NCBI GenBank assembly: GCA_964643065.1
Contig: CAZXPD010000007.1
Coordinates: forward strand, 136 to 64,135
DNA length: 64,000 nt
Direction: 5' to 3'
DNA from: an uncultured Gammaproteobacteria bacterium
GTDB taxonomy: Bacteria > Cyanobacteriota > Vampirovibrionia > Gastranaerophilales > CAZEDP01
Positions 20,731 to 63,617 of this stretch are shown in pieces (position 1 is the first letter of the stretch; every line of letters begins with the position of its first letter). The position numbers and the translations under genes were made by a program. The notes below the pieces were generated by a model that did no database searches, was not told where the DNA came from, and worked only from the letters and a program-made list of their open reading frames with translations.

Positions 20731-21135
20731 TCAATTTTGTTCTTTATTTTTTAAAAATGATGAAACTTTTGCATCTAATTTTTCCATTTGATTTGCAAAA
20801 GCTTTACAATATTTGCTTTGGCGATATTGTGCCCAAATGTTAAGTTTGCTCCATGCATAATAATCGTCAGGAGCATTGTTTTTGGTTAAAAAATATTTGA
20901 GACAATATTCTCCCCAATCCATTAGGAAGATTTTACTAAGAGGATAAAATAGTAAAAAATTATCAACGTCCAATTGATTTGTATGCATTAACTTAGCAAT
21001 GGGATAAGCAATTTTGCCGGCTTCAATTACGGCAGTCGGTCCATATTTGCGTGAAGCGTCTATAATCTGTTTAGTTGTATTGCCTTGAATACTTATATTA
21101 TTATTTAGACCCGAATTTACTGTCGATATTTGCAT
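20731..21135 (-). CDS. Hypothetical protein with an Asn-rich N-terminal module (MQISTVNSGLNNNISIQGN..)
   Basis: 134-aa ORF with a strong ribosome-binding site (AAGGAAGAGGTAGGA). I see no recognisable domain. Confidence 0.6.
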   Translation of the reverse strand: MQISTVNSGLNNNISIQGNTTKQIIDASRKYGPTAVIEAGKIAYPIAKLMHTNQLDVDNFLLFYPLSKIFLMDWGEYCLKYFLTKNNAPDDYYAWSKLNIWAQYRQSKYCKAFANQMEKLDAKVSSFLKNKEQN

Positions 21136-21527
21136 TCCTACCTCTTCCTTATGAATTTATTTCATTCATGTTTTATTAAAACCGCTGAAACTAAAACATG
21201 CTATTTATTCTGAAATTTGTAAAGTTTCTTTAATAAATTGCTTATGAACTAGCAAATTTATTTTTGACAGGTTTTTAAACTTTTACCTAAATGTATTTTG
21301 AGGAAATAAATATATTTGTATCAAATGTGAACAATGGACAGAGTTTTGGCAGCGTATTTATAGTAAAAGTCAAAATTCGTGGAATTGATTTCAAAGTTTA
21401 AATGATACACAAAAGATAAAGTTATACAGATCAACCTGCATTTGTCAATTCAGAAAGAAGGAAATAATTGATAATACAAAAAAAATTCAGCTTAAACACC
21501 CAAATTTGTTTAAAGGGAATTTATATA

Positions 21528-21866
21528 ATGACAGCACAAAATCCTGCGAATCAGACTCAATTTGCCGAAACTGTCAAATCAACTCAGAGTTACAGAGATT
21601 ATCTTGCAAGAAATTACGCAGATGCTGAAGGTGCTCTGAATTGTGTTGTTTTGTCAGACAATACTGTAATTGGTCTCACCGGAAAGCATTCTTCGCGGTT
21701 TAACAAATTATTATATGAATATAGCCCGCTATTGCCAACCAATAAAAATGAATTAACCGAATTACAGGAAAAATCATTTAATCAACTCCTTGCTGAAGAA
21801 GGAAAGACATTAGCTGATACAGATATTATCCGAGTTCCTGAAGACAATATCTGGCCTTTCTGTTAA
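21528..21866 (+). CDS. Hypothetical protein (MTAQNPANQTQFAETVK..)
   Basis: An ORF in an otherwise empty region. The internal ATG at 21528 is preferred over the track start at 21468. Confidence 0.45.
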   Translation: MTAQNPANQTQFAETVKSTQSYRDYLARNYADAEGALNCVVLSDNTVIGLTGKHSSRFNKLLYEYSPLLPTNKNELTELQEKSFNQLLAEEGKTLADTDIIRVPEDNIWPFC

Positions 21867-21988
21867 TTTTGGCAACTTCTAATAATTACGGTTTAATTTC
21901 TCTAAATCTTCCATAAATTAAAAAAACCTTGTAAAATAACATGTTCTCGATAGAATTATATTGAGATACCATTTTTATTTGAGGTTAT

Positions 21989-22204
21989 ATGTCAAAGGAA
22001 GTCATCGAATTTGAAGGTACAATAATCGAATCATTGCCAAACGCTATGTTTCGTGTAGAATTAGAGAACAAACACATGGTGCTGGCTCATATATCAGGTA
22101 AGATAAGGAAGAATTTTATAAGAATACTTCCCGGGGACAAGGTAAAAGTTGAATTAACCCCTTATGACCTGTCAAGAGGGCGGATTACGTACCGAATGAA
22201 ATAA
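21989..22204 (+). CDS. infA: Translation initiation factor IF-1
   Basis: 71 aa ([52 protein letters not shown]). Confidence 0.96.
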
Positions 22205-22238
22205 GCATAACACTTCTCATATATGAAAGGATACAACA

Positions 22239-22904: not shown

Positions 22905-22929
22905 TAAAACAGGAGAATAATAAACTATC

Positions 22930-27170: not shown

Positions 27171-27197
27171 AAACCTCCCGTTTGGGAGGTTTTTAGT
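27171..27197. terminator. Bidirectional intrinsic terminator between rpsI and the convergent hypothetical gene
   Basis: AAACCTCCC-GTTT-GGGAGGTTT with flanking A and T runs. Confidence 0.75.
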
Positions 27198-27849
27198 TTA
27201 TATACAATGGTCTGTCACTTTTAAACTTTCCCCCGGTCATTATCAAACAACCGCGTTCATTAATTATAGGTAGTCCCTTTGACATTTCAACAAACAGTTC
27301 TTTAATTACCGACCATTTTTCGCTAGCGCGGCTTAGGTCTATATTTTCCGTCAAAAGCATCTTTCTTTTGACTGGTATAACTTTTATGCGATAATCTTGC
27401 GGTATAAGAATATTTACGCATTGGGACAATATTCCTGTACTCATATCATAAACATAATGGCAATCATTTTTGCCTGTAATATCTTTTATTTGAAGATGCA
27501 CTTGGTTATCTTTAACAAAATTAAAAGAAATAATATTATCTGCAATTTCGCTAAATCCGCTATCCATGATATTCGCAACTTTTTCACTGTGCTGAGGTTG
27601 ACTAATAATACGGGCTATCATAGCCTGTATCGTCTCCGGTCTCATGGTTTTATGCTCTTGGGAATATAATAAATCTATATTAATGCAGATTTTTAAGAGT
27701 TTTGTAATTTCATCAATAATTAAATCAGACTGTTTGGGATACTTTTTACAAAACTCGCTTACCGGAACAGCCCCAAATATAATATTTCTATTGCAGTTAT
27801 TTGCAGAATTTGCATTTGATCGATTTTTATTAATAAGAGAAACTTGCAT
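27193..27849 (-). CDS. Hypothetical protein carrying the shared N-terminal module (MQVSLINKNRSNANSANNCNRNIIFGAVPV..)
   Basis: 218-aa ORF that is monocistronic. Its N-terminal 30 aa match the module seen in other ORFs of this window. Confidence 0.6.
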   Translation of the reverse strand: MQVSLINKNRSNANSANNCNRNIIFGAVPVSEFCKKYPKQSDLIIDEITKLLKICINIDLLYSQEHKTMRPETIQAMIARIISQPQHSEKVANIMDSGFSEIADNIISFNFVKDNQVHLQIKDITGKNDCHYVYDMSTGILSQCVNILIPQDYRIKVIPVKRKMLLTENIDLSRASEKWSVIKELFVEMSKGLPIINERGCLIMTGGKFKSDRPLYIN

Positions 27850-28021: not shown

Positions 28022-29104
28022 ATGAAACAAATACTCGACTACTCAAAGCTCTTTGATATTCTTAGAGATGTATATTCCGCTTTACCTTGTTATTTAGGAC
28101 ACGGTCATTCTTTTCCGCCTCTCAGATATTCACTTGAGCTGACCTACAAATGCAACCTGAACTGTCCCTTTTGCTATATCGGCGAATCAAGGAACAAAAA
28201 CGAACTAAACCCTGAGGAATGGCTGAATCTAATAAAACAAATTCCGCCGTGGAGTCTGATTACTCTAGTGGGAGGCGAACCTCTCGCAAGAAAAGATTTC
28301 CCGGAAATCTTTTCCGCTGCGGCAAGAAGAGCAAAAGTAAACGTGGTAACTAACGGTGTTCTTTTAAATGAAGATATTATTGATCTTTTTATTAGTAGCA
28401 AGCTCTTATTGCTTAGCGTCTCTCTTGACGGTTACGGTAAAAATCATGACAAGAACCGCGGGAAAGAAGGCATATTTGAAACTATCATGAGCAATCTTGA
28501 AAAACTCAATTCTAAAAGGCAGGGTAAGAATCGCCCAATGGTGGATATTAAGACAATTGTTCTTGAAAACAACCTTGATGATTTGATAAAAATTTACAAA
28601 CTATGCGCTGAAATGAATTTTGAATTTATGTCCATAGCATTTCTCAGGGCAAATAATTTAAAACAAAATTCAGTCCTTAGAGAGAGCTTTGGTGAAGAGT
28701 TTTATAAAACTCAATATGATATCAAACCGTATTTTGATATCGAGCATTTTAAGGAGGTTTATAAAGAGCTCAACGCACTTTCAAATAAAGCTACGACAAC
28801 TGTCAGATTCGCTCCAAAATTTCCTTCAAATAATGAACTGAACCAAATAGAGAAATTTTTTGCAAATAGTGACAAGTGCGAGTCAGAAATTTATAATCCA
28901 TGCCTTTATCCATGGTCTAATATTCATATAAACCCTGAAGGTGATATCTATCCCTGTTTAGCATATAAAATAGGTAATGTAAGAAATACGGGCATCATGG
29001 AAGTATGGAACAGCAGGAAATTCGCTAATTTTAGAAACAAACTTAAGAAACAAAAAGTATTTTCGGCATGCCAAATGTGCTGTGAACTTAAGGTAAAGAA
29101 GTAA
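28022..29104 (+). CDS. Radical SAM enzyme with a C-terminal SPASM/twitch-like Cys cluster
   Basis: 360 aa with CNLNCPFC (CxxxCxxC) and a GGEPL motif. C-terminal cysteines lie at CLYPWSNIHINPEGDIYPC ... CQMCC. Confidence 0.85.
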   Translation: MKQILDYSKLFDILRDVYSALPCYLGHGHSFPPLRYSLELTYKCNLNCPFCYIGESRNKNELNPEEWLNLIKQIPPWSLITLVGGEPLARKDFPEIFSAAARRAKVNVVTNGVLLNEDIIDLFISSKLLLLSVSLDGYGKNHDKNRGKEGIFETIMSNLEKLNSKRQGKNRPMVDIKTIVLENNLDDLIKIYKLCAEMNFEFMSIAFLRANNLKQNSVLRESFGEEFYKTQYDIKPYFDIEHFKEVYKELNALSNKATTTVRFAPKFPSNNELNQIEKFFANSDKCESEIYNPCLYPWSNIHINPEGDIYPCLAYKIGNVRNTGIMEVWNSRKFANFRNKLKKQKVFSACQMCCELKVKK

Positions 29105-29114
29105 AGCTAAAATT

Positions 29115-30536
29115 ATGGAAAAGAAAAAAATATTATTAATATATCCGCCAAGCGGAATAATGAATAGAGAAGACAGATGTCAACAGCCGGTAAAGGAGCT
29201 TATTGTTATTCCTCCTCTGCCGCCGACTGATTTGCTCTATATGGCTGCCATAGCCGAAAAAGCCGGTTGCAACGCAATGGTTAAGGATTACAGTCTTGAT
29301 GCTCAAACAGGAATTGATTTAGTCAGAGACCTTAATGAGTTCAAACCGGATTTTATTGTTATAAACGTAACCACACCCACAATTAAAAGCGACCTTCAGT
29401 ACTGCACAATTGCAAAAGAAATCCTGCCCTCGATTCAAATCATTGCCAAAGGTGCACACTTTCTGACCTTTGCTGAAGAGACTTTAAAAGCATTTCCGAA
29501 TTTGGACTTTGCAATTAAAGGCGAGCCTGAGCTGACTCTCGAAGAACTTCTTAACGGCAAAAATGCCCAAGACATTAAGGGATTAGTTTGGAGAAACAAA
29601 GATAAAATAATAATCAACCCCGACAGAGCGTTTAATGAAGATTTAGATTCACTGCCCTATCCTGCAAGACATCTGGTAGATAATTCTCGTTTCAGACGTC
29701 CCGATAACAACAGGGTGCAAGCGGTAATAAAAGTTTCAAGAGGCTGTCCGTATCATTGTTTCTTCTGCCTTGCAACGCCGGTTTCAGGAAAGAAAGTCAG
29801 GACAAGAAGTCCTGAAAATATTTTAGGCGAAATTAAAGAATGCATCGAAAAATATAATATAAGAGATTTTATATTCTGGTCGGATATTTTCAATTTTGAC
29901 AGAAATTGGGCTGTTGAACTTTGCGAAGCCATCATAAAATCGGGACTGAAATTCACATGGGCTGCCAATACCAGAGCAGATACCGCAGATTTGGAACTGG
30001 CAAAACTCATGTACAAAGCCGGCTGCAGACTCGTCAGTATCGGCGTTGAAAGCGGCAATCAGGAAATGCTTGATAAAATGGGTAAAAAAACTACCCTTGA
30101 GCAGATACGGCAAACCGTTAATGATTTTAAAAAAGCCGGTATGAAAATTTATAACTATTTTGTCATCGGGCTTCCATGGGAAACAGAAGAAACAGTCAAT
30201 GATACCGTTGATTTTGCGATAGAGCTGAACAGTGATTTCATCAATTTTTATACGGCTGTCGCATTCCCGGGAACAAAATTTTACAATTATGCAGTTGAAA
30301 ATAGTCTTGCTGACTCATCAAACGTGTTAGAATTATTTAATGATGTATATTATTATCCGGTTACAAGCGGTCATCATTTAAGTAAAGAAAGGATATTTGA
30401 ACTTCATAAAAAAGCGGTAAAAAAGTATTACCTGAGACCTGAATTTATACTTAAAACGCTGCTATCCATACGCTCAATCAAAGAATTTCAAAACTATACA
30501 AAAGCAGCATTAGCAATAATAAGAAAAAGTGACTAA
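29115..30536 (+). CDS. B12-binding-domain radical SAM enzyme (class B)
   Basis: 473 aa with an N-terminal Rossmann-like B12-binding region (ILLIYPP.., DFIVINVTTP) and a radical SAM motif CPYHCFFC. It lies 10 nt downstream of the preceding radical SAM gene. Confidence 0.88.
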   Translation: MEKKKILLIYPPSGIMNREDRCQQPVKELIVIPPLPPTDLLYMAAIAEKAGCNAMVKDYSLDAQTGIDLVRDLNEFKPDFIVINVTTPTIKSDLQYCTIAKEILPSIQIIAKGAHFLTFAEETLKAFPNLDFAIKGEPELTLEELLNGKNAQDIKGLVWRNKDKIIINPDRAFNEDLDSLPYPARHLVDNSRFRRPDNNRVQAVIKVSRGCPYHCFFCLATPVSGKKVRTRSPENILGEIKECIEKYNIRDFIFWSDIFNFDRNWAVELCEAIIKSGLKFTWAANTRADTADLELAKLMYKAGCRLVSIGVESGNQEMLDKMGKKTTLEQIRQTVNDFKKAGMKIYNYFVIGLPWETEETVNDTVDFAIELNSDFINFYTAVAFPGTKFYNYAVENSLADSSNVLELFNDVYYYPVTSGHHLSKERIFELHKKAVKKYYLRPEFILKTLLSIRSIKEFQNYTKAALAIIRKSD

Positions 30537-30597
30537 ATTTAGCCGATAAACCTATTATGGCTGTGATTTTAATTTGAAGGAAAAGTAAATATAAATT

Positions 30598-31854
30598 ATG
30601 ATAAATAAGACGACATTTCCAAACGGTTTAAGACTGATAACCGAATATATGCCCGAGACATATTCAGCAACTGTTATGGTTTGGATTGATGCGGGTACGA
30701 ATGTAGAAAAGGCCGAGCATAACGGTATTTCACATTTTATAGAACATCTTGTATTTAAAGGAACAACAAATCGCACATCAAAGGATATTGTGCAGACAAT
30801 AGAATGCACCGGCGGAAGTATAAATGCATTTACTGACAAAGAAACTACCTGTTATTATGCAAAAGTGCTCGGGAAAGACACTGCAACGGCAGTTGACATT
30901 TTGCTCGATATGACATTTAACTCCAAATTCGAGGATCATGATATTGAGCTTGAAAGACAGGTTATACTTGAAGAAATCAAGATGTATGAAGATGCGCCCG
31001 ATGAACTTGTTCATGACCTTTTAATTAAATCATTCTGGGATGAGCACCCGCTTGCAAGACCTATTACAGGTTCGATAAAAACTGTAAAAAACATAACAAG
31101 GAATGATATTTTAAACTTTGCAAACGACTACTACACTCCCGACAACATAATTATTTCAGTTGCAGGCAATTTTAATGAAGAAGAAATCATTAATCTTATC
31201 AAAGATTTCACAGAAAATATCAACAGCAGATGTAAAATCAGACAAGATATCCTACCTGTTGCAAAGCCGTTAATTAATGTTAAAAGAAAAGACATAGAAC
31301 AGGCTCATATTTGTATCGGCACCAAAGCAGTTTCCGTCCTCGATAAAGACAGATATGCGCTGGCAATAATTGACGTTTGTTTAGGCGGCGGAATGTCATC
31401 AAGGCTGTTTCAGACAATCAGAGAGCAGCGGGGACTTGCCTATTCCATCAACACATACGAAGCTCTTTATCGTCCGTCAGGGATATTCGGTATTTATTCA
31501 GGAGTTAACAGCCAAAACGTTAATGAGGTTATTCAATTAACTTATGAAGAAATAGAGAAATTTAAATCCGAGGGACCTGCTGAGGAAGAATTCATTCAGG
31601 CAAAAGAACAGCTCAAAGGAAGCCTTTTAATCGGGCTTGAATCCACTAAATACAGAGCAGGAAGAAACGGCAGATCAGAATTGTACTTTAACAAAATCAT
31701 CAATGCCGAGGAGCTCTGCTCTGAAATTGACAACGTATCAACAGTTGACATTAAGAGAATGGGCGATTACATTTTTAACGAAACTTCAACAGCGGTTTAT
31801 ATACTTGCTCCGAAAAGTTACAAACACAGGGGGGGAAACTTTGGCAGAAATTGA
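30598..31854 (+). CDS. M16 (pitrilysin-family) zinc peptidase
   Basis: 418 aa with the inverted zinc motif HFIEH (HxxEH) and a downstream E (LEEIKMYED). Confidence 0.9.
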   Translation: MINKTTFPNGLRLITEYMPETYSATVMVWIDAGTNVEKAEHNGISHFIEHLVFKGTTNRTSKDIVQTIECTGGSINAFTDKETTCYYAKVLGKDTATAVDILLDMTFNSKFEDHDIELERQVILEEIKMYEDAPDELVHDLLIKSFWDEHPLARPITGSIKTVKNITRNDILNFANDYYTPDNIIISVAGNFNEEEIINLIKDFTENINSRCKIRQDILPVAKPLINVKRKDIEQAHICIGTKAVSVLDKDRYALAIIDVCLGGGMSSRLFQTIREQRGLAYSINTYEALYRPSGIFGIYSGVNSQNVNEVIQLTYEEIEKFKSEGPAEEEFIQAKEQLKGSLLIGLESTKYRAGRNGRSELYFNKIINAEELCSEIDNVSTVDIKRMGDYIFNETSTAVYILAPKSYKHRGGNFGRN

Positions 31855-32284
31855 ACTTAAAATCCACAAATTACCCAATAACTTCAGCATGCCATCATAC
31901 GCAACAGCAGGCGCAGCAGGAATGGATTTGACGGCAGGAATATCCGAAACAATAACATTAAAACCTTTTGAACGAAAACTTATTCCGACAGGTATAATTA
32001 TCGAACTCCCGTCGGGTTATGAAGCGCAAGTTCGCCCCCGCTCAGGTTTAGCAATAAAATTCGGAATATCATTATCCAACTGCGTTGGTACAATTGATGA
32101 GGATTACAGAGGCGAAGTCTGTGTAGGATTGATAAACTTATCATCCGAAGATTATACAATCCATCCCGGTGACAGAATAGCTCAAATGATTATCTCACCG
32201 GTTCAGCGCGTTAAAATTACGGAAGTAAAAGAATTAAGTTCAACAGAGCGTTCATCCGGCGGATTTGGTTCAACAGGAAGATAA
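31841..32284 (+). CDS. dut: dUTP diphosphatase
   Basis: AGAAGMDL, RPRSGL, GTIDEDYRGE and C-terminal SSGGFGSTG motifs. The probable TTG start at 31841 follows a G-rich ribosome-binding site and overlaps the peptidase stop. The track start at 31637 is an in-frame read-through inside the peptidase gene. Confidence 0.9.
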   Translation: MAEIELKIHKLPNNFSMPSYATAGAAGMDLTAGISETITLKPFERKLIPTGIIIELPSGYEAQVRPRSGLAIKFGISLSNCVGTIDEDYRGEVCVGLINLSSEDYTIHPGDRIAQMIISPVQRVKITEVKELSSTERSSGGFGSTGR

Positions 32285-32521
32285 TATTTTTTTACAAAGT
32301 TTTTTGTTTTTGTAGGCAAAACTCAATTGAGCTGCGAAAACATCTAGGATAAATTCTGTAATAAATTATGCCCCATAATATATTGACAACTAACGAGACT
32401 ATACCAAAGATAATCTCTGTTTATTATCAATTTTATAAAAATATGCAAATAGGAATTAAATATGATATACTGTTTTTCTTAAAAAGTTCTAAGGTATGGT
32501 TAGCTACAAGAGGGTTTGGAA

Positions 32522-32704
32522 ATGGAAGAAGAAAAAAGAATGACTCAGCATCAAATGCCGCAGGAAGAAGAAATGTCTTCAAAAGAAGAAAATCAATGCA
32601 ATCATTGGCATTCTGAAGCTACAAATTCCTGTTCCGGAAGGTGTATGCTCAAAGCCAATCATTCTTCAAACCATGGCTGCGGAATTTGCCACGGTCAATG
32701 GTAA
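32522..32704 (+). CDS. Small acidic-leader, Cys/His-rich peptide (60 aa)
   Basis: The ATG at 32522 is preceded by AGAGGG 7-8 nt upstream. There is an extended -10-like TGATATACT near 32464-32472, and a strong terminator follows directly. Sequence: MEEEKRMTQHQMPQEEEMSSKEENQCNHWHSEATNSCSGRCMLKANHSSNHGCGICHGQW. Confidence 0.5.
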   Translation: MEEEKRMTQHQMPQEEEMSSKEENQCNHWHSEATNSCSGRCMLKANHSSNHGCGICHGQW

Positions 32705-32725
32705 AAAATTATCCGTAAACTTGAA

Positions 32726-32751
32726 GAGCAGGCGTTATGCCTGCTCTTTTT
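32726..32751. terminator. Bidirectional intrinsic terminator
   Basis: GAGCAGGC-GTTAT-GCCTGCTC followed by TTTTT. It is shared with the convergent minus-strand ORF. Confidence 0.75.
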
Positions 32752-32754
32752 AAT

Positions 32755-32985
32755 TTAATAAGACTGCTGTTCGCGCAGTACAATAAAGAATTTACTCATT
32801 TGAACAAGATGGTTCATGCCGTTATACACTGATTTTGAGTTACTTCCAGTATCCTGCGCTGATGCAGAATCATCGTCAGAGAGTATAATGCCTCTCCTTT
32901 CCAGCTGTTTCAATATCTGTTCATCAATTTGGCTGCCCATTTTAGAAATATCTAAATTAATCATTTTTTCACTTCCGGTTTCCAT
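32755..32985 (-). CDS. Small hypothetical protein (76 aa; possible start at MINLDISK)
   Basis: An ORF between a terminator and an AT-rich promoter region. I see no recognisable motif. Confidence 0.4.
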   Translation of the reverse strand: METGSEKMINLDISKMGSQIDEQILKQLERRGIILSDDDSASAQDTGSNSKSVYNGMNHLVQMSKFFIVLREQQSY

Positions 32986-33143
32986 CCCTATATATATTAT
33001 ACATAATCTATATATCTTATTGTTGATTTATTTGTTCTTCTATAAAAAATATTTACAATTCAGAAACAATTATAAATAGTCAATCGGGCGGTGAAGTTTG
33101 AAAGAATTTCAGAAAAAATGTTTTACAAAAAGGAGACAGGGAT

Positions 33144-34265
33144 ATGAATACTAAGGAAAAATTGCAGACTTTGTTTAAGAAAGCTGACATTAGGATATTG
33201 GATGATTTTTCAAACGCAGAAGAACGTCCGTGGGACTTAAGGGTCCTCAACAATAAGTTATATGACAGGATATTCAGTTCCGGGTCACTGGGTCTTGGAG
33301 AAGCATACATAGAACAATGGTGGGACTGCAGCGAACTTGAAAATTTAATATATCGAATTTTAAAGAAAGATTTGCACAGGTTTCTAAACATAGCAGACGT
33401 TATGCTGCTCATAAAATCAAAAATAATGAATCTGCAATCGTTAAAAAGGGCATTTGAGGTCGGGATAAAACACTATGACATCGGAAACGAGCTCTATGAA
33501 AATATGCTTGACGGCAGAATGCTTTATTCATGTGCTTACTGGGAAAATTCTGCCAATCTGGAGGAAGCACAGGAAGCGAAATTGGAACTCATCTGTAAAA
33601 AGCTTAAAATTGAACCCGGAATGGAAGTTCTTGACCTTGGCTGCGGTTGGGGCAGTTTAGCCAAATATATATCCGAAAAACACAATGTAAAAGTCACCGG
33701 AATATCTGTATCCAAAGAGCAAATCAAGTATGCAGATGATATTTGTGCCGGCAATGACGCATATTTTTATTTGGAAGATTACAGAGATTTTGCCAAAAGA
33801 AAGTTAAAATTCGACAGAATAGTTTCTGTCGGAATGTTTGAGCATGTCGGTTTTAAAAATTACCGGACGTATATGAAGTGCGTCAACGATTGCCTCAAGC
33901 CCGACGGACTTTTTCTGCTGCACACAATCGGAAACAGCAGCACAACTAAGTTTGGTGACGGATTTTTAAATAAATATGTTTTCCCGAACGGAGTTCTGCC
34001 GTCACTGCAGCAAATAGGCAAAGCATCAGAGATGATTTTTAACATTGAGCATCTTGAAAATATCGGACCTCACTACGAAAAAACATTATTGGCGTGGTAT
34101 GACAATTTTGAAAGAAATTGGGATAAAATTACATCACTAAATCCCAAATATGATGAAAAGTTTTACAGGCTTTGGAAATATTATCTGCTCTCATGCGCAG
34201 GGGCATTCAAAGCAAAACATATTCATGTATGGCAGATAATTTTCTCGATGTATAAACCCTTTTAG
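33144..34265 (+). CDS. cfa: Cyclopropane-fatty-acyl-phospholipid synthase family methyltransferase
   Basis: 373 aa with the SAM motif VLDLGCGWGSLAKY and CFA-synthase-type flanks (HYDIGNELY, MFEHVG, W.YYL..CAGAF). Confidence 0.88.
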   Translation: MNTKEKLQTLFKKADIRILDDFSNAEERPWDLRVLNNKLYDRIFSSGSLGLGEAYIEQWWDCSELENLIYRILKKDLHRFLNIADVMLLIKSKIMNLQSLKRAFEVGIKHYDIGNELYENMLDGRMLYSCAYWENSANLEEAQEAKLELICKKLKIEPGMEVLDLGCGWGSLAKYISEKHNVKVTGISVSKEQIKYADDICAGNDAYFYLEDYRDFAKRKLKFDRIVSVGMFEHVGFKNYRTYMKCVNDCLKPDGLFLLHTIGNSSTTKFGDGFLNKYVFPNGVLPSLQQIGKASEMIFNIEHLENIGPHYEKTLLAWYDNFERNWDKITSLNPKYDEKFYRLWKYYLLSCAGAFKAKHIHVWQIIFSMYKPF

Positions 34266-34354
34266 AAACATGTATTTTTATAATGCCCGACTTTTATGTA
34301 TAATTAGTTTCAATAAGTTTATATCAGAGCAGAGAGTGTTATGGAGGAATACAA

Positions 34355-34852
34355 ATGACAGAATTTTCAAGCAGCGACTTAAAAGCAAGACTTGCTCAAA
34401 TACAAATAGAACTCAATCATTCAGAAAATCTTGAAAAAAATCTTACGGAAAAATTATCTGACGAAGAAAAGGAATTTATTGCACAAAACCGCATCAGATA
34501 TACTGATCTGGTAATTGAAGCAAACGACATTGAAAATCTTTTAGGCAGCAAAGGGGAAACAATATCTATTGATGAGCTCAAGCAAAAATATGCCGGTATA
34601 AAGGAGCTGTTAGCCGATCCCAAGCCGAGAGAGGCTTCGAATGCACTTGAGCAACGTGCAAAAAGATGCTGGACAAGATGCGTAACTTGCATTTCCTGTA
34701 CAACATGCATTACCAATTCAGGTCTTCGTCCAAATGAACATTTCTGCTACCCTGCAGGATCGAGAGAATACATCTGTAATCCTAAATCTGAAACTACGGG
34801 TCAATATGAAAATGGTAAAATTGAAGACCTGAAAATCAAATGGAACAAATAA
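34355..34852 (+). CDS. Candidate RiPP precursor or radical SAM substrate protein (165 aa) with a Cys-free helical leader and a Cys-rich C-terminal region
   Basis: Strong ribosome-binding site GGAGGAA. All 7 Cys lie in the last 61 aa. Core block RCWTRCVTCISCTTCIT lies at 34664-34714. The next gene starts 11 nt after the stop. Confidence 0.65.
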   Translation: MTEFSSSDLKARLAQIQIELNHSENLEKNLTEKLSDEEKEFIAQNRIRYTDLVIEANDIENLLGSKGETISIDELKQKYAGIKELLADPKPREASNALEQRAKRCWTRCVTCISCTTCITNSGLRPNEHFCYPAGSREYICNPKSETTGQYENGKIEDLKIKWNK

Positions 34853-34863
34853 GTTTATAAGTT

Positions 34864-36315
34864 ATGATAATTACCGAAAATAAATTTCTTCGTCTCTCAG
34901 ACAACTGGCGTCTCAGAGTTGAAGGAGGACATTCAATATTATATTCTTATGATCCCGAGGTTCTTGTGTGGTATCCACTGTCAAAAGAAATGACAGCCGG
35001 TCTTCTGTTAATGGACGGCAAAAAGACATTAAGCGAAATCAAAAAAATATTGCTGTTTCTATTTGATGATGTACCTGAAACATTCATAAAAGAACTTCTC
35101 GAAAGCCTTATGCTGCTTTCGTCGAATGAACAAAACCCAAATCACATTGTAGAATATTCTGACTTAGCGTTTTCAGAAACTCACAGATATGATATTGAAA
35201 ATATACTCAAAAAGATGCAAACTTACACACAGGAAGAATATGACAGAGTTGAATCTGGATTATTGCTTTCACCGTTAAATTTAACTATTATGCCGACTGA
35301 AAAATGCTTTACAAACTGTGTATACTGCTATTCCCAACGAAAAGAAACAAAAACCGACGAAATGCTTTCTCTCGAGAGATGGTTTGAAATTATTGACGAG
35401 GCTTCTGAGTTGGGAATTGAACTGGCAGTCCTGACCGGCGGAGATCCAATGGCATATCCTCATATAATACCCCTGCTCCAAAAGCTCATAGAAAAAGGAT
35501 TTTTGTTTGTAATACCGTCCAAATCATTTATTTCTAAAGAACTTGCACAGAGAATGGCTGATATCGGTATGAGGAAAGCATGGAATCAGATAAGCATAGA
35601 TGCCGTTTCCAACGATATTGCAAAGAAAATGGTCGGGGTTGAGAATTATGCAGAATTAGCTTTCGAATCAATTCAAAACATGATTGAGGCAGGTTTAAAT
35701 GTAAGAGCCAACTGTGTAATGACGCCTATTAACTGTTCAGAGGCACTGGAACTTGTAAAAAAATTAGACGAACTCGGTGTAAAAAAAATCAGCATCGCAG
35801 GTTACGGAAGGTCCTATTACCGTCATAACGACGATTTATTTCTTACCGATGAGCAGATGGAAGTTATTAACTCTGCTGTTGATTCAATAAAGAATGAATT
35901 GAATGCAGAAATAAGCTGCAATATGTCTCGAAGAGATTATAGCGATGCATCTGTCGAACAAAGAACGCAAGAATGGAAAGAACGAGCAAAATGCTCAGGC
36001 GGTCGTTCAAGCATGGTAATAGCTCCGTCCGGAAAAGTTACACTATGCGAACAAATGCCCTGTGAAGACGAATTCTTCGCAGGAGATCTAAGTCATCAAA
36101 GCATTATGGAAATATGGAATTCAGAGCGTATAAAATTCCTGATGGCTCCTCCCGTAGAAATGTTTAAAGGAACAGCATGCGAAAAATGCGAAGACTATGA
36201 AAAATGCATGAATTACTATGGATATTGCTTCAGAGACGCACTGTTTACATACAACACAGTTTACTCTCCCCCTCCGAATTGCCCTAAAGCACCACCGGGC
36301 ATTCGTTTGCAATAA
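34864..36315 (+). CDS. Radical SAM/SPASM peptide-modifying enzyme with an N-terminal PqqD-like RRE domain
   Basis: 483 aa. The N-terminal ~90 aa resemble a PqqD-like recognition element (..LSKEMTAGLLLMDGKKTLSEIKKIL..). It has the radical SAM motif CFTNCVYC and C-terminal SPASM cysteines (CSGGRSSMVIAPSGKVTLC, CEKCEDYEKCMNYYGYC). Confidence 0.88.
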   Translation: MIITENKFLRLSDNWRLRVEGGHSILYSYDPEVLVWYPLSKEMTAGLLLMDGKKTLSEIKKILLFLFDDVPETFIKELLESLMLLSSNEQNPNHIVEYSDLAFSETHRYDIENILKKMQTYTQEEYDRVESGLLLSPLNLTIMPTEKCFTNCVYCYSQRKETKTDEMLSLERWFEIIDEASELGIELAVLTGGDPMAYPHIIPLLQKLIEKGFLFVIPSKSFISKELAQRMADIGMRKAWNQISIDAVSNDIAKKMVGVENYAELAFESIQNMIEAGLNVRANCVMTPINCSEALELVKKLDELGVKKISIAGYGRSYYRHNDDLFLTDEQMEVINSAVDSIKNELNAEISCNMSRRDYSDASVEQRTQEWKERAKCSGGRSSMVIAPSGKVTLCEQMPCEDEFFAGDLSHQSIMEIWNSERIKFLMAPPVEMFKGTACEKCEDYEKCMNYYGYCFRDALFTYNTVYSPPPNCPKAPPGIRLQ

Positions 36316-47989: not shown

Positions 47990-48217
47990 TTATTTTAACA
48001 AACCCAACCTTTGAAACAACCCTTTGATAAAAGACACGTCATTAGCAAGTTTCAAATCAATTTTATTTCTGCCGAAAATCCTTCTGTCTATTCCTGAACG
48101 TTTATCGTCATTAACAGGCACATCTTCTTTGCGCCTGTCCGATTTATTCAAATACTGCGGATAAAGATTTAATATATTTATCAGCAATTTACCCGTCCCT
48201 GAATTTTCACTCGCCAT
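47990..48217 (-). CDS. Small basic hypothetical protein (75 aa)
   Basis: An ORF only. It contains DRR-type basic repeats (SDRRKED, SGIDRRIFGRN). Confidence 0.35.
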   Translation of the reverse strand: MASENSGTGKLLINILNLYPQYLNKSDRRKEDVPVNDDKRSGIDRRIFGRNKIDLKLANDVSFIKGLFQRLGLLK

Positions 48218-50741: not shown

Positions 50742-51929
50742 ATGCATTCATCATCGATAAAAACAAATCAAACAAACCAAAGCTTCGGATGTTTCGGAAT
50801 ACGGCGTATGTTGGGGTTTTCAACTAAACGGATAACCGTTTTACAGCCCAATATTGATTCATTCAGCACATATTTAACCCGTGTTTGTTCAAAGGAATGG
50901 AAATCCGTCATTAAACACATCCAGAAAAAATTCTCAAAACTTAAATTTGCCGATGATATTAATAATGCGCTGAAAATAGATTACAGAACCGTTAACGATA
51001 AACTTTTTGCTGATATAACATACAGCCCGAGAAACAACTTTAATCTAAAAAACAAATTTCAAAGAGAACTGGAATCCTACGGCTTAAGATTGCCAAACCA
51101 GCCCTTTAGTATTGCTTTGCCATCAGAACCGACAAAAATGTCCGCTCTTAAATGCGAAATAACAGGAAGCGAATGGTTCAAAAGCATTAAAAAAACTACC
51201 GAAAACCTTCATAAATGCATCGCATTTTGGGGCAAAGGCACTTTCCCTACAAAAATCGAATCCGGCAAAGTACTTATAAACAAGCCCTTAAATCAAACAG
51301 AGCTGAAGCCAAGAACAATGGAGCTGATTGATTACTTTAAAAATTTTAAAAACAAAGTTAAGAAAGCAGCAAGACCTGATTGTTGGGGTTTTGGACGTGC
51401 GAAATTCTTTAAAAACGATGTTCTCAAAATTGATACACATTTAGATACAAGTGCTTCTGCGGGAATCAGCCACGATGTCAATATGGTTTTCGGCAATGAT
51501 TTACAAAATCTTCGCGCTAAAATGGAAATCATAATACCCGATGAAGCATTAAACAAAACAAATTTGTCACAGGAAAAAAGTTTACAATTTATTTCACAAA
51601 TGAGCGAATTCTCCAGACAGCTTAATGATTTAGTTTGCACAAGCAAAAAATTTAAAGCATTAAAAACCGACATCGACAAAATTAAAATTTCTTATTTTGT
51701 AAATACAGAGGGCATTATTGCGGCAAATCTGGACGTTGCTCTGAACGGAAGAAATTTTAATCTTGCAAACAATGTTATATTTGCAGAGGAACTCAGAGCG
51801 CGCATAATTACAAACAGACAAAGCATCCCTGTATGCAAGATTAACAAATATCTTTCAGACCTTGACAATGAGCTTGCTTGTTTAACTAAGAGAGAAAAGA
51901 ACCATCAAAATCTTATAAATACCAGATAG
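50742..51929 (+). CDS. Hypothetical protein with the shared N-terminal module (MHSSSIKTNQTNQSFGCFG..)
   Basis: 395-aa ORF with a weak ribosome-binding site and no recognisable domain. Confidence 0.6.
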   Translation: MHSSSIKTNQTNQSFGCFGIRRMLGFSTKRITVLQPNIDSFSTYLTRVCSKEWKSVIKHIQKKFSKLKFADDINNALKIDYRTVNDKLFADITYSPRNNFNLKNKFQRELESYGLRLPNQPFSIALPSEPTKMSALKCEITGSEWFKSIKKTTENLHKCIAFWGKGTFPTKIESGKVLINKPLNQTELKPRTMELIDYFKNFKNKVKKAARPDCWGFGRAKFFKNDVLKIDTHLDTSASAGISHDVNMVFGNDLQNLRAKMEIIIPDEALNKTNLSQEKSLQFISQMSEFSRQLNDLVCTSKKFKALKTDIDKIKISYFVNTEGIIAANLDVALNGRNFNLANNVIFAEELRARIITNRQSIPVCKINKYLSDLDNELACLTKREKNHQNLINTR

Positions 51930-51951
51930 ATTAATTTTGCGGAAATTATTA

Positions 51952-52326
51952 TTAAATAACAGGCGTTAAAAACAACTCTAATTCGGCAGTCATCCCTTTT
52001 TGAAGAACACTAGCAATAGCTGAATTCAAGGGTTCTATCCAACTGCCGGGATGCTCAGGGGATGCTGTTTTGTCGAGAAATACTTTCGACAAAATTTTAT
52101 CCTGATCGGATTTTCGAAAAATTGAAACCAGCCCTTTTTGTTCTTTCTCGCAAAATTCAAATGCAATTTTCAACCCTCTGTCATCAAGCATTTGAATAAA
52201 GGGTGAATAAACCTTATAAAGCCAAATCTGAACTTCAGGAGGGATATTTTGTCGAAAACTGACATTCCTTGAATTCGTCGTACTTGATTTTTGGCATAAA
52301 CCGTTGAGATTAAGCATAACTTTCAT
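51952..52326 (-). CDS. Hypothetical protein with the shared N-terminal module (MKVMLNLNGLCQKSSTTNSRNVSFRQNIPP..)
   Basis: 124 aa with a strong ribosome-binding site (GGAAGGAGGA). Confidence 0.65.
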   Translation of the reverse strand: MKVMLNLNGLCQKSSTTNSRNVSFRQNIPPEVQIWLYKVYSPFIQMLDDRGLKIAFEFCEKEQKGLVSIFRKSDQDKILSKVFLDKTASPEHPGSWIEPLNSAIASVLQKGMTAELELFLTPVI

Positions 52327-52529
52327 AATTGTCCTCCTTCCAAATTTTTCTTCCGGAAAATTTTATCCGGTAACAAACATTTTTTCTAAAAAAAAGGGCT
52401 AAACAATAATCCATACGATTATAATTACAATATTTTTTGTTAAGAATTTTGTAAATTAGAGATGATTAATAGCAACTTTTTTTCTGTTCCGATTTTAATC
52501 ATTTAGGTTGATTAAAGGAAGGAAAATTA

Positions 52530-53489
52530 ATGAAAATCCAAAATATAGCAATTTTTTCTAACAACAAATTACACAGAAAAAATACGACAGCTGAACAAAA
52601 TTCAGCTTTAAGCTGTCAAAAAAGTTTTTTAAACCTCAACTGCACCGATATAGTCTGCTTTTCGGCAAAAATCCCTAAAAAGATATCAATAATCGTTCCT
52701 CGCGGGAGTTCTCCCGATCTTGCAAGAGAACTTGAAAAAGGGCTAATCAGTAAAGATCATATGGAAAGAGGACTGACTGCCTTACGAATCGGCAAATTAA
52801 AAATTAAGGAAAATGCAAGAGCCCTAAAAGATTTATTCACAGACGGTTCTGCTTATGTCAGATTGCTGGCAGTCAGAGGATTTGCAAAAATAGGAAATCC
52901 GAACAACGGACACTGGCTCAAAATATTAGTGAATGATAAAGACCCTGAAGTAAGAAAAGAAGTTGCAATTGCCGTAAGAGAATTCGGAAATAAAAAACAG
53001 GTCGGCTTAATTTTAGAACTTATGAAGGATAAAGATCTTTCGGTTAAATCAGCGGCAGTCAGGACATTGGGTTTTATCGGGGGAAAAGAACATGTCAAGC
53101 ATTTGGTTCCCATCCCTGATTTTTCTCTTAGTGTTTCAAGTCCGGTTCATCCATTGGAAGCCTATGCAGAAGCTTTGGGAAAAATCGGCAGTGAAGAGCA
53201 TGTAAGTGAACTTGAAAAATTACTTTACCTCAATAACCGCAGGATACAAGAAACAGCTGCCGCATCCATAGCCAAAATTGCGAGCCTTGATACTTTGCTT
53301 TCGTTCTTACCTAAACTCTCAGACGAAAAACCCATTGTAAGAGAGATATTCGCATACTTGTTCGGAGAAACCAAACGCACGGATTTTCTTAGTTATTTAG
53401 ACCATATCAAGGTTTCTGACGGCAATGAATATGTCAGACAAGCCGCTTCAACCGCAGCGAAGAAAATCCGTCAAGCAAATTCAAAGTGA
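52530..53489 (+). CDS. HEAT-repeat (PBS-lyase-type) protein with the shared N-terminal module
   Basis: 319 aa with ribosome-binding site AAGGAAGGAAA. Its N-terminus is MKIQNIAIFSNN..LSCQKSF..IVCFSAKIPKK. Repeated HEAT units follow (VRLLAVRGFAKIGNP, DPEVRKEVAIAVREFGN, DLSVKSAAVRTLGFIGG, EYVRQAASTAAKKI). Confidence 0.75.
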   Translation: MKIQNIAIFSNNKLHRKNTTAEQNSALSCQKSFLNLNCTDIVCFSAKIPKKISIIVPRGSSPDLARELEKGLISKDHMERGLTALRIGKLKIKENARALKDLFTDGSAYVRLLAVRGFAKIGNPNNGHWLKILVNDKDPEVRKEVAIAVREFGNKKQVGLILELMKDKDLSVKSAAVRTLGFIGGKEHVKHLVPIPDFSLSVSSPVHPLEAYAEALGKIGSEEHVSELEKLLYLNNRRIQETAAASIAKIASLDTLLSFLPKLSDEKPIVREIFAYLFGETKRTDFLSYLDHIKVSDGNEYVRQAASTAAKKIRQANSK

Positions 53490-59451: not shown

Positions 59452-59466
59452 TTACGGTTAAAACAC

Positions 59467-61200: not shown

Positions 61201-62384
61201 TTTTCAAAAACTTCCTCTAATATTTGTCGGGCAATGTCTGTTTTTAGTGCTCTTTTGATAGTTTTTGCTTCGCCCTTTTTATTAATAAGCAAAACTTCAT
61301 TGTAATCGCTGTCAAACCCGCAATCCTTTCGCGAAATATCATTAGCAGCGATAAAATCAAGATTCTTTGCTTTAAGTTTGCTTACGGCATTTGATTTTAG
61401 ATTTTCGCTTTCGGCGCAAAATCCAACTGTTACTTGATTTTTCTTTTTTAATTTACCGACTTCCGCCAAGATATCGGGATTCTTTACCAGCCTTAATGTC
61501 AATTCATCCATATCTTTGGACTTCTTAATTTTTGTGTTTTTCACAGATTCGGGACGAAAATCCGCAACCGCCGCAGCCATAATAAGAGCATCGCAGTATT
61601 TAAAATTATCCTTAACATTTTCCAGCATGTCCTGTGCTGATTGAACTTTTATGACCTTATACGGACGCGAAATTTCAACGGTTGTTATTAAGGTTGTTTC
61701 GGCGCCTGCTTCAAATGCTTTATCGGCAAGAGCAATTCCCATTTTACCGGAGCTGTAATTCCCAATAAATCTCACGGGATCAATGTTTTCTTTTGTTCCG
61801 CCGGAAGTTACGAGAATTTTTTTCCCCTTCAAAAACACCTGACTGTCAAAAACGCTTTTCACTTTTTCAACAATTGCGCAAGGTTCAGCTAATCTTCCGT
61901 TTCCGCTCCATCCGCAGGCAAGTTCACCTTCTTCCGGTTCAATGACAATTATTCCGCTGTTTTTCAAAATATCAAGATTCTTTTTAAAAATCGGATTATC
62001 CCACATACCCGTATTCATAGATGGAGCGATTATGATTTTTTTTTGGAAAGCAAGTGCAATGGAAGTCAACAGATTATCGCAAATGCCGTTTGCAATTTTG
62101 CTTATGGTATTTGCCGTTGCAGGAGCAATTAAAAAAATATCGCTGTCATCTGCAAGACTGATATGCTCGGGTTTCCACTCGGGAACATCAAATTGCTCGC
62201 AGTAAACTTCATTTCTCGTGAGGGTACGCAAAGTCGTCAGTGTCACAAATTCCTTTGCATTCGGAGTAATGACAGCTTTAACATCTGCACCCTGCTTTAC
62301 AAGCAGTCGAATAATTTCGCAGGACTTATATGCAGCAATTGCGCCTGTTATTCCGAATAAAATTTTTTTTCCTTTAAGAGACAT
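61197..62384 (-). CDS. coaBC: Bifunctional phosphopantothenoylcysteine decarboxylase/phosphopantothenate-cysteine ligase
   Basis: 395 aa with an N-terminal flavoprotein domain (ILFGITGAIAAYK, PATANT) and a C-terminal CoaB domain (TSGGT.E.IDPVRFI.N.SSGKMG, AAAVADFRP). Confidence 0.95.
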   Translation of the reverse strand: MSLKGKKILFGITGAIAAYKSCEIIRLLVKQGADVKAVITPNAKEFVTLTTLRTLTRNEVYCEQFDVPEWKPEHISLADDSDIFLIAPATANTISKIANGICDNLLTSIALAFQKKIIIAPSMNTGMWDNPIFKKNLDILKNSGIIVIEPEEGELACGWSGNGRLAEPCAIVEKVKSVFDSQVFLKGKKILVTSGGTKENIDPVRFIGNYSSGKMGIALADKAFEAGAETTLITTVEISRPYKVIKVQSAQDMLENVKDNFKYCDALIMAAAVADFRPESVKNTKIKKSKDMDELTLRLVKNPDILAEVGKLKKKNQVTVGFCAESENLKSNAVSKLKAKNLDFIAANDISRKDCGFDSDYNEVLLINKKGEAKTIKRALKTDIARQILEEVFEK

Positions 62385-62958
62385 TTTGAGTTTTTTTGTT
62401 CAATTCACTTAAAACGATATTTTTAAGCTTTTCGTATGCAACGCTTAAATCATCATTAATTATTTCATAATCAAACAAAATTTTCCTCTCAAGTTCGCTT
62501 TTTACTATGGCAAGTCTGTTTTCAATAGCTTGCGGAGAATCGGTCTTCCGTTTGAAAAGTCTCGATTTCAGCACATCTATTGAAGGCGGCAGAATAAAAA
62601 TTAAAACCGCATCTTCAATTTTCTCGTTAACCTGAACGGCGCCTTTTACGTCAATTTCGAGAAAAACATCATTACCGATGAGAAGAGTATCCTGAAGATT
62701 TTTTATTGCAGTACCGTAATAGTTTCCCGCAAACTCCGCCCATTCGAGAAACTCACCCTTATTTACCATTAACCGAAATGTTTCCTGATTTACAAAATGA
62801 TAATCAACATCCGGTACTTCATTGAACCGCGGACGTCTTGTAGTATAAGAAATAGAAAGTTTAACATCAGGAAAATCTTTGCACAGCATACCAAGTAAAG
62901 TTCCCTTGCCGACGCCGGAAGGACCTGATAATACAAAAATTTTTCCCTTTTTCACCAT
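62374..62958 (-). CDS. gmk: Guanylate kinase
   Basis: 194 aa (GPSGVGKGT, TTR.PR..E..G.DY.F, EWAEF.GNYYGT). Confidence 0.95.
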   Translation of the reverse strand: MVKKGKIFVLSGPSGVGKGTLLGMLCKDFPDVKLSISYTTRRPRFNEVPDVDYHFVNQETFRLMVNKGEFLEWAEFAGNYYGTAIKNLQDTLLIGNDVFLEIDVKGAVQVNEKIEDAVLIFILPPSIDVLKSRLFKRKTDSPQAIENRLAIVKSELERKILFDYEIINDDLSVAYEKLKNIVLSELNKKTQNVS

Positions 62959-63110
62959 AATTCAAATGTAACATAAAATTCAAATTGAGTTAAGGGGGCA
63001 ATGACGACGAATAGAAAAAAGGAGCTTTTTAACCATTCGTTAACAGCCGCGAAAAGCATATATTCTTTCTTCAAAATCCCCGCGGTTATAAGGCGCCTTT
63101 TAGGAGGCTG

Positions 63111-63617
63111 TTATGGATTCAACACCGGCGGCAAACCGCGTTTAGTTCTGAAAAACTTTATGAATCCTTTTGCCAAGTCCCTGAGTGACGGCTTCTGTAT
63201 ATTTTCCCCTGAAGAGCTTTCGATTTTATAATGACCGACTTCATTGGAAAATTCTAATTTTAGCTTGGTTGTCATTTCTTTGCCTAATGTAAACGAACTG
63301 CTGAGCTGTTTGATGGAACTGATTGAATCAAAATCAAAATCAGCCATTCCCGCATGTTCTTTTAAGAAATTAATAAAACTGTCAAAATTCCAATATGTTT
63401 CGGGGTTGGGAATTAATTCTGATTTAGAACCTCGTTTAACATCATGGATTATAAGTTTTGTACCCGCAGGCAGGTTATTCAATCGTTCTGCGAACTTAAT
63501 AAACGCGGGTTTCCACTGCACAAAACCGTGGCTATAGGTTACAACCGGAATGCCCTTAAAGTTCTGAGGTCTAATCGCTGTATTATGATGATTTAAATTC
63601 CTGCTTTGCACCTGCAT
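63111..63617 (-). CDS. Hypothetical protein with the shared N-terminal module (MQVQSRNLNHHNTAIRPQNFKGIPV..)
   Basis: The internal ATG at 63617 is preceded by GGAG 9 nt upstream and gives the module-type N-terminus. The track start at 63686 adds 23 aa with no ribosome-binding site. Confidence 0.6.
   Translation of the reverse strand: MQVQSRNLNHHNTAIRPQNFKGIPVVTYSHGFVQWKPAFIKFAERLNNLPAGTKLIIHDVKRGSKSELIPNPETYWNFDSFINFLKEHAGMADFDFDSISSIKQLSSSFTLGKEMTTKLKLEFSNEVGHYKIESSSGENIQKPSLRDLAKGFIKFFRTKRGLPPVLNP

Follow-up and report, generated by a model that had tools for sequence, protein, structure and literature searches.

Within a 64-kb window (the whole stretch analysed, 64,000 nucleotides of contig CAZXPD010000007.1, from an uncultured bacterium of the Gastranaerophilales), several unrelated and mostly orphan proteins share a short N-terminal tag built around a conserved Phe peptide. 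Judged from sequence, the strict form of this tag is a real lineage-specific N-terminal element in at least three of nine proteins. These nine open reading frames (ORFs) had been picked out in an earlier sequence-only reading as carriers of a candidate novel targeting or export signal; all nine are present, and their translations match the quoted N-termini. In the model proposed here, the Gastranaerophilales and at least one more distant melainabacterium possess a lineage-specific N-terminal extension of ~12-55 residues, grafted onto unrelated proteins. It comprises a conserved tip, M-[KQRN]-[IV]-x-x-[IV/N], then a disordered spacer that evolves fast, varies in length, and is rich in Asn, Gln, and Ser but poor in acidic residues, and finally, immediately ahead of the folded domain, a hydrophobic peptide that is again conserved, [IV]-[SN]-F-[GK]-x-(x)-[VIL]-P-[VF]. 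The anatomy and conservation pattern of the extension, the unrelatedness of its cargo, and its restriction to N-termini and to one lineage are documented below. As to its role, the preferred interpretation, with a probability of about 40%, is that of a lineage-specific bipartite docking peptide, probably used in export or sorting.

A strict core confined to N-termini in Melainabacteria

The tag is best recognized by a strict core, F[GKH][AGS][VIL]{1,2}P[VF], which is found in three window proteins (as FGAVPV, FGAVPF, and FKGIPV). Comparison DNA was gathered through an RpoA scan, giving ~1 Mb of Melainabacteria sequence (loci L007-L058 and L060) and ~0.5 Mb of Firmicutes sequence as a control, and a later scan added ~0.75 Mb from other phyla. 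When all the collected DNA was searched in six frames (4.7 M translated residues), two further Melainabacteria proteins with the strict core were found, namely a 165-aa protein with the N-terminus MQVSNNGRRNNFGSVIPV and a dual-specificity phosphatase of a distant melainabacterium (locus L039), which reads '...KDTVSFKALPV' and thus holds the core as FKALPV. The strict core, therefore, occurs in five independent Melainabacteria families; in each of them, it follows a polar leader and lies 12-41 residues from the start. Outside Melainabacteria, it was met only at a conserved internal site of ornithine aminotransferase, at one internal site in a Firmicute protein, and in two noise ORFs.

The N-terminal restriction was replicated in a set of 999 proteins, from which the window and its orthologs had been excluded. 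This set contains two N-terminal strict-core matches against 0.08 expected, a count reached by 2 of 400 shuffles, and no internal match in 197,191 Melainabacteria residues. Restriction to N-termini, thus, holds for the strict core, which in Melainabacteria is found at N-termini only, but not for the looser core discussed further on, whose enrichment there is not significant. In non-window proteins chosen by the Phe criterion alone, position 3 is Ile or Val in 5 of 12 cases, compared with a background of 11.9% (p=0.009), which indicates that the tip and the Phe peptide go together.

The lineage assignment relies on RpoA, which is at most 75% identical to that of any species representative, and whose top matches are all metagenome-assembled genomes (MAGs) of Candidatus Gastranaerophilales/Melainabacteria. 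The window has a GC content of 35% and carries housekeeping genes (GlnRS, GuaA, a ribosomal protein-rpoA cluster, HisS, and CoaBC), plus an MCP. Its proteins recur on the JGI metagenome contig 3300022666/Ga0248168_1000531 and on Logan contigs, and further look-ups around GlnRS, IF-1, and P0002 led mostly back to the same strain. One related species was used for comparison, represented by Logan SRR8925823_8284 (hereafter L170) and NCBI GCA_964418165.1 (L171) and fully syntenic with the window over 42.5-63.6 kb, and a sister strain was available as Logan SRR36158021 (L174). A metagenome scan with the ornithine aminotransferase encoded nearby retrieved 80 loci, which include no syntenic locus and no orthologs of the motif genes.

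Translated leaders on unrelated bodies

The composition of the leaders, i.e., the residues preceding the Phe motif, was determined on 25 collected examples, partly picked by eye, of 10-51 residues. Asn makes up 17.4% of them, 3.3 times its level in the protein bodies, with additional enrichment in Gln, Ser, and Cys, and depletion of Glu, Gly, Asp, Leu, Val, and Trp. Position 3 is Ile or Val in 19 of the 25, a count to be read in light of the by-eye choice of part of the set.

When species are compared, conservation is seen in the first residues and in the Phe peptide, whereas the spacer has diverged. For example, ORF 48739-49260 (the coordinates of the nine ORFs are given in Table 1) and its L170 ortholog are 68% identical, and share an identical QFGAVPFVNK, whereas their spacers are only ~50% identical. 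For the HEAT-repeat protein 52530-53489, the leader is ~35% identical to that of the ortholog P0006, with indels, while V[CS]FSAKIPKKISIIVP is identical. F20, G22, P24, and V25 are invariant in three orthologs of 63111-63617, with a variable leader. The ortholog of 51952-52326 keeps NVSF[RK]QNIPP, and that of 42528-43505 carries [VM]SF[KR]. The ortholog of 43502-43954 is 93% identical, and that of 50742-51929, in L170, is 74% identical and has a conserved N-terminus. The same layout is seen in a family of loci L026, L031, and L033, where residues 1-17 are conserved, 18-42 hypervariable, and a following IP..F.Y...IHFGE is conserved again. An exhaustive HMMER search returned a single distant homolog of the protein encoded by 27193-27849, P0014, which is 31% identical over the body; its N-terminus cannot be aligned, yet it contains 'ISF...AIP'.

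These observations presuppose that the leaders are translated. The sequence-only reading had described the starts as well supported, and the evidence agrees: the source pipelines call the same starts (with an identical call for 27193-27849 in JGI and Logan), and the L170 and L171 orthologs keep the Met and the reading frame. Every motif gene of the syntenic 42.5-63.6 kb has such an ortholog with the same Met, at 68-93% protein identity. Starts could nonetheless have been mis-annotated, with translation beginning downstream and the leaders being untranslated 5' regions. The strong ribosome-binding sites reported for most of the genes are indeed found directly upstream in most, but no clear site precedes 27193-27849 or 50742-51929, and leaders show less synonymous divergence from the related species than bodies do (dS of 0.53 against 0.90, for the genes starting at 42528, 43954, 49260, 50742, 52326, 52530, and 63617). 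This lower leader dS suggests an extra constraint on the mRNA near the start. Mis-annotation is, however, very improbable, given that the pipelines agree independently, that several genes have no alternative start codon near the motif, that leader indels in the L170 and L171 orthologs are multiples of three and so stay in frame, and that the pooled ratio of nonsynonymous to synonymous divergence (dN/dS) is 0.42 in leaders, below 1, compared with 0.19 in the nine residues around Phe and 0.12 in bodies. The leader value of 0.42 argues that the leaders are translated.

The bodies behind the leaders had been described as unrelated, which is borne out by the absence of any BLASTP match at E<0.01 and by hhalign probabilities of at most 1.5% for all 45 body pairs (single sequences, which limits sensitivity). 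A common N-terminus could also be inherited rather than convergent or functional, if the nine proteins formed one diverged paralogous family, or if a 5' segment had been duplicated. The genes are clustered, with six of the nine within 11 kb (42.5-53.5 kb) and housekeeping genes between them, and two of them have FGAVP in common, with 93% identity in the 15 nt that code for it. This origin is, nevertheless, highly unlikely: in addition to the BLASTP and hhalign results, the 5' regions show no DNA similarity past that 15-nt stretch, which rules out a shared 5' DNA module, and the proteins range from 124 to 395 aa, one being a HEAT solenoid and another having C-terminal transmembrane (TM) segments.

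AlphaFold2 models are consistent with an unstructured extension. The predicted local distance difference test score (pLDDT) stays under 50 for almost the whole of residues 1-33 in the 168-aa protein 63111-63617 and for residues 1-62 in the HEAT protein, while both bodies reach 70-89. That the extension is unmodelled in both cases speaks against a motif that merely forms the opening strand of each fold.

Eight of the nine ORFs have no Pfam or NCBIfam match, and the ninth (52530-53489) is recognized only as HEAT. Searches of PADLOC, NCBIfam, and PDB sequences with the motif proteins gave nothing past generic HEAT matches and a marginal PADLOC match of 43502-43954 to NsnC (E=0.005). For 27193-27849, no match was found in Pfam, NCBIfam, PADLOC, or PDB, and a scan of genome contigs revealed no relatives. 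The cargo families are near-orphan in a database of 5.8 billion proteins. A word-indexed protein search returned two orthologs for 63111-63617 and none for 50742-51929; as a 74% identical ortholog of the latter exists in L170, absence from this search is not absence in nature. Among the Pfam-less window proteins of at least 100 aa, 8 of 11 carry the loose signature (counting the doubtful 20731-21135), while the HEAT protein is the only Pfam-annotated one that does, according to a tally from gene and Pfam calls.

Part of this repertoire differs between strains. In the sister strain, ORF 20731-21135 is replaced by the unrelated 165-aa gene mentioned above, on the opposite strand, whose N-terminus bears the tag in strong form. 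Another strain-specific gene begins with 'MRVNSINTADIYKGTGKNCELSFKSPLV', and two of the three strain-specific hypothetical genes of the sister strain carry the tag. At the place of the window's 12-14.3 kb genes, the sister strain has two hypothetical genes (164 and 173 aa), one of them tagged.

Likeness to known signals and possible roles

The sequence-only reading found no Sec, Tat, or lipobox signal in these proteins, and none was detected in the N-termini of the members; features of prepilins and double-glycine leaders are absent as well. Sec signals are characterized by a hydrophobic core of about 7-15 residues in the first ~30 aa, preceded by a short basic n-region. In the members, the maximum 12-residue Kyte-Doolittle hydropathy is 0.5-1.75, with its peak at the motif, and the longest apolar run is at most six residues, compared with hydropathies of 2.0-2.7 at residues 2-4 in three true signal peptides of the window. 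No twin-arginine pattern of the type S/T-R-R-x-F-L-K occurs in the first 45 residues of any member, no match to the lipobox [LVI][ASTVI][GAS]C was found (the leader Cys residues lie in polar context), and there is no type IV prepilin site (Gly at -1, then F/M-T-L-I-E and about 20 hydrophobic residues). Double-glycine leaders for C39 peptidases, of 15-30 aa, end in GG or GA with a consensus of the LSxxELxxIxGG type; no member has a GG among its first 30 residues. Genuine prepilins with 'FTLAEVLI...' are present in related loci, and genuine Sec peptides are carried by other proteins of these genomes. Like these classical signals, the tag is N-terminal, is attached to diverse cargo, and has a polar or positively charged start, but it lacks their hydrophobic core, twin arginine, lipobox, or G|FTLIE site.

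The closest comparison is offered by flagellar export. Early flagellar type III substrates carry a bipartite signal, consisting of an N-terminal small-hydrophobic element and a gate recognition motif (GRM), of pattern FxxxΦ, that binds FlhB-C (Bryant et al. 2022, PMC8983047). They resemble the tag in having an unfolded N-terminus with small hydrophobic residues at positions 2-8 (a feature that the tag displays) and a Phe-centred hydrophobic peptide, in that spacer length outweighs spacer sequence, and in needing neither a chaperone nor a Sec-type core. Nevertheless, the fourth residue after Phe is hydrophobic in only ~6 of 18 motif instances, as expected by chance (about a third), and the flagellar spacing rule is broken by five out of eight window proteins with a Phe motif, whose Phe is at residue 15, 20, 21, 24, or 25; in the strain-variant 165-aa protein, it is at residue 12. 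In addition, the Pro found 3-6 residues after Phe in the tag is not part of the GRM, and the tag's cargo is not flagellar. Membership of the flagellar GRM class was, therefore, rejected on pattern and spacing, although, by analogy, the tag may work similarly. Some Gastranaerophilales are reported to have flagella and some to have lost them (PMC4451040), and export through the flagellum is also open to proteins that are not flagellar, such as the Campylobacter Cia proteins (reviewed in PMC9856085). In locus L045, a rod protein reads 'SFRGVL' where a GRM would stand.

The signals of type III effectors and flagellum-exported proteins (PMC9856085) are, like the tag, disordered, polar, and acid-poor N-terminal stretches of ~20-30 residues. 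Effector cargo is also similar to the tagged cargo, being diverse, fast-evolving, often orphan, and strain-variable, with enzyme and repeat domains. In contrast to the tag, with its defined and conserved Phe-Gly/Lys...Pro peptide, effector signals have no conserved sequence motif. No injectisome is known in the Gastranaerophilales/Melainabacteria lineage.

Acid-poor, hydroxyl- or amide-rich extensions of variable length on unrelated cargo are also typical of organellar presequences and of the cargo signals of extracellular contractile injection systems. Presequences removed by M16 peptidases (M16/MPP type) have Arg at -2/-3 (or -10) from the cleavage site, and some cleavage sites have an Arg a few residues before an aromatic residue. 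In four members of the tagged set, Arg stands four residues before Phe (RNIIF, RNVSF, RPQNF, and RRNNF), and an M16 gene (30598-31854) is present in the window. The likeness to presequences and contractile injection signals is one of composition only. No relevant description of a Melainabacteria N-terminal motif was found in the literature, and the motif, which the sequence-only reading did not recognize either, matched no described signal.

Overall, the tag belongs with the unfolded N-terminal recognition peptides on diverse cargo, and its reading as a novel targeting signal is plausible. In the proposed mechanism, the tip and the Phe peptide would be two recognition elements docking the proteins to one common partner, most likely in an export or sorting pathway, and the spacer would merely set the distance between them, as a tether. 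Such an N-terminal signal would be bipartite and unfolded, like those of type III secretion substrates, and might be cleaved off later, and the tagged proteins would form a fast-evolving, effector-like repertoire. Export or sorting is favoured on account of the likeness of architecture and cargo to type III substrates, the orphan and strain-variable character of the repertoire, and the Sec export of distant HEAT homologs: three of four full-length homologs from other phyla (P0008, P0010, and P0011) have classical Sec signal peptides in place of the polar leader, a weak hint that this HEAT domain family is extracytoplasmic. A wider formulation can be put forward only tentatively. According to it, Melainabacteria, non-photosynthetic sisters of the cyanobacteria, would use an undescribed N-terminal export or sorting signal (tip, spacer, and Phe-Gly/Lys...Pro peptide) for a large, fast-evolving, strain-variable, effector-like repertoire, accounting for about a tenth of the genes in some regions and handled by a dedicated or repurposed machine. 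It is equally tentative that this repertoire would include phosphatase, kinase-like, protease, HEAT, and membrane-inserting proteins. Of the original proposal of a targeting or export signal, what stands is the short conserved N-terminal element on unrelated, mostly orphan cargo devoid of classical signals, while export or targeting itself is a hypothesis.

Several points weigh against export or sorting. Apart from one MCP, the 64-kb window contains no secretion or flagellar gene. The Melainabacteria sample amounts to ~1 Mb of DNA, most of it from the surroundings of rpoA, rather than to whole proteomes. The low pLDDT of the leaders may partly result from alignments of two or three sequences, so that the unmodelled extension is indicative only, and the Sec-bearing HEAT homologs are merely ~30% identical repeat proteins. 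The simplest explanation for the richness in Asn and Ser is that a spacer under weak constraint has drifted with an AT bias; at 35% GC, such drift leaves no need for a functional explanation of an Asn-rich spacer. Moreover, several cargos are enzymes of cytoplasmic type, and some have C-terminal TM segments. Tag-like N-termini elsewhere in Gastranaerophilales loci are found on a DSP phosphatase, a CheR-type methyltransferase, a PPDK/GWD-like dikinase, an AAA+M41 (FtsH-like) protease without TM segments, and a kinase-like protein (assigned by eye), as well as on several small proteins with C-terminal hydrophobic segments.

The nature of this cargo is also what speaks for a cytoplasmic short linear motif, through which the Phe peptide, with or without the tip, would dock to an intracellular hub, with no export involved. 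The hub could be a protease or unfoldase adaptor (the motif then being a degron), a pro-segment peptidase, a TPR/HEAT scaffold, or a positioning ATPase. In addition to cargo domains typical of cytoplasmic enzymes, C-terminal TM anchors in some members (including L043_1206 and the 164-aa gene of L174) would leave the N-terminus in the cytoplasm, the peptide is conserved although it lies in an unmodelled region, the M16 peptidase gene is 2.7 kb from motif gene 27193-27849, and the Arg four residues before Phe recurs in four members. Although it is doubtful taken by itself, such a motif is nearly as likely as export or sorting. Against it, the orphan, strain-variable, and fast-evolving cargo suits an outward-facing repertoire better than housekeeping regulation, and the Sec export of distant HEAT homologs points the other way.

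The remaining difficulties concern the looser consensus. The pattern given in the sequence-only reading, [VIA][SQN]F[GKR], fits only four of the nine proteins. The expectation that the motif would beat shuffles within the window was borne out for post hoc regular expressions (5 matches against 0.75, and 5 against 0.22, in composition-preserving shuffles), but not in a de novo search, as an expectation-maximization motif finder applied to the window N-termini, with two settings, did no better than on shuffles and did not recover the motif. A position-specific scoring matrix (PSSM) from the window seeds retrieved nothing extra from the other loci, only its own seeds, and a hidden Markov model (HMM) from 19 seeds likewise found only its own. 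The core [VI][SN]F[KG] is ~1.5-fold more frequent at N-termini than internally (0.20-0.23 against 0.13-0.15 per 1000 aa), a non-significant difference (p=0.13-0.16). Since the loose consensus fails these unbiased tests, the number of true members among the nine is uncertain: by sequence criteria, three are strict members, and the four or five loose fits are individually unprovable.

Because of these failures, weight has to be kept for the view that there is no common function, even though it too is unlikely, and slightly more so than a cytoplasmic motif. The nine would then be young, lineage-specific genes of an AT-rich genome, which tend to have weakly constrained Asn-rich N-terminal tails. 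The 'motif' would mark the point at which each fold begins, with a hydrophobic-polar-Phe strand start that leads into a turn, and would owe something to coincidence and to post hoc selection as well. The relaxed constraint on the leaders, their skew towards AT-rich codons, and the way in which the signature tracks orphan status all fit this view. It does not account for the strict core of six to seven residues in five unrelated families, at N-termini only and independently replicated, for the co-occurrence of Ile or Val at position 3 with the Phe motif, for a motif outside the modelled fold in both AlphaFold2 models, or for one far more conserved than the spacer directly before it. Looser patterns also show some signal beyond the window. 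One post hoc regular expression was modestly replicated in non-window Melainabacteria orphan families (9 matches against 3.6, p≈0.01), and a polar acid-poor leader followed by [SN]F[KGRS] was found 19 times in Melainabacteria, compared with 9.4±3.0 expected (reached by 2 of 200 shuffles), and 6 times, compared with 4.3, in the other phyla.

Two finer details of the sequence-only reading did not survive. The Cys19-x-x-N shared by three of the nine proteins is compatible with chance, as three shared Cys positions among nine Cys-enriched leaders are estimated to arise about once in ten. The CQKS common to two of them is, by estimate, also within chance, and the Cys of the copy in 52530-53489 is lost in the ortholog.

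Gastranaerophilales are uncultured bacteria that are common in animal and human guts, and for most of their lineage-specific genes no function is predicted. If the tag were a true address label, a large share of this dark matter would fall into one functional class, whose members could be listed from sequence in any genome. The tag would also point to a route of sorting or secretion that has gone unrecognised in the nearest relatives of cyanobacteria without photosynthesis, and raise the testable question of what is delivered by these bacteria and who receives it.

The nine ORFs and their neighbours

The coordinates of the ORFs, leaders, and motifs are listed in Table 1. The claim that all nine are tagged does not extend to 20731-21135, in which the tip is present and the Phe motif is absent.

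Table 1. The nine ORFs, with their leaders and Phe motifs, and the strain-variable loci (window positions, or L174 positions for the sister strain; RBS, ribosome-binding site)
Location (strand)	Product	Leader	Phe motif	Remarks
27193-27849 (-)	218-aa orphan	27784-27849 (residues 1-22, MQVSLINKNRSNANSANNCNRN)	IIFGAVPV, 27760-27783	strict core
48739-49260 (-)	173-aa orphan	49165-49260	AQFGAVPF, 49141-49164	strict core
63111-63617 (-)	168-aa orphan	63567-63617	QNFKGIPV, 63543-63566	strict core; true start, ATG at 63617
51952-52326 (-)	124-aa orphan	52264-52326	VSFRQNIPP, 52237-52263	strong RBS upstream
52530-53489 (+)	319-aa HEAT-repeat protein (Pfam HEAT_2)	52530-52652	VCFSAKIPK, 52653-52679	
43502-43954 (-)	150-aa orphan	43832-43954	VSFGWGGISP, 43802-43831	loose motif only
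50742-51929 (+)	395-aa orphan	50742-50777 (short)	QSFGCFG, 50778-50798	loose motif only
42528-43505 (+)	325 aa, two C-terminal hydrophobic segments	42528-42581	VSFKQ, 42582-42596	loose motif only
20731-21135 (-)	134-aa orphan		none ('MQISTVNSGLNNN' tip)	membership doubtful; strain polymorphism
L174:8968-9465				strain polymorphism
L174:1594-2606				strain polymorphism

Some of the motif genes adjoin each other. ORFs 42528-43505 and 43502-43954 are convergent, with a 4 bp overlap, and three motif genes lie side by side in 50742-53489. At 21528-21866, a 112-aa orphan starts with 'MTAQNPANQTQFAETV', and the sister strain version with 'MTAQNPKNQQGFLHGV', so that the tail varies around a conserved Phe; this protein may be a further weak member of the class. 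A conserved 75-aa protein (47990-48217, 89% identical in L170) contains two DRR motifs and a C-terminal 'NDVSFIKGLF', and has no Pfam match.

Divergently transcribed from motif gene 27193-27849 is a cluster at 28022-36315, which holds two radical SAM-SPASM genes (28022-29104 and 34864-36315), a B12-binding radical SAM gene (29115-30536), the M16 peptidase gene, a dUTPase, a CMAS-type methyltransferase (33144-34265), and small ORFs at 32368-33079. From its gene content, it looks like a cluster for peptide maturation, of the type acting on ribosomally synthesized and post-translationally modified peptides (RiPPs). TPR proteins of the window are encoded at 7514-8752 and 40933-42303. Finally, the gene at 39790-40677 encodes 295 aa of RTX calcium-binding nonapeptide repeats (Pfam HemolysinCabind, six stretches), with no N-terminal signal, and its product is likely a type I secretion substrate.

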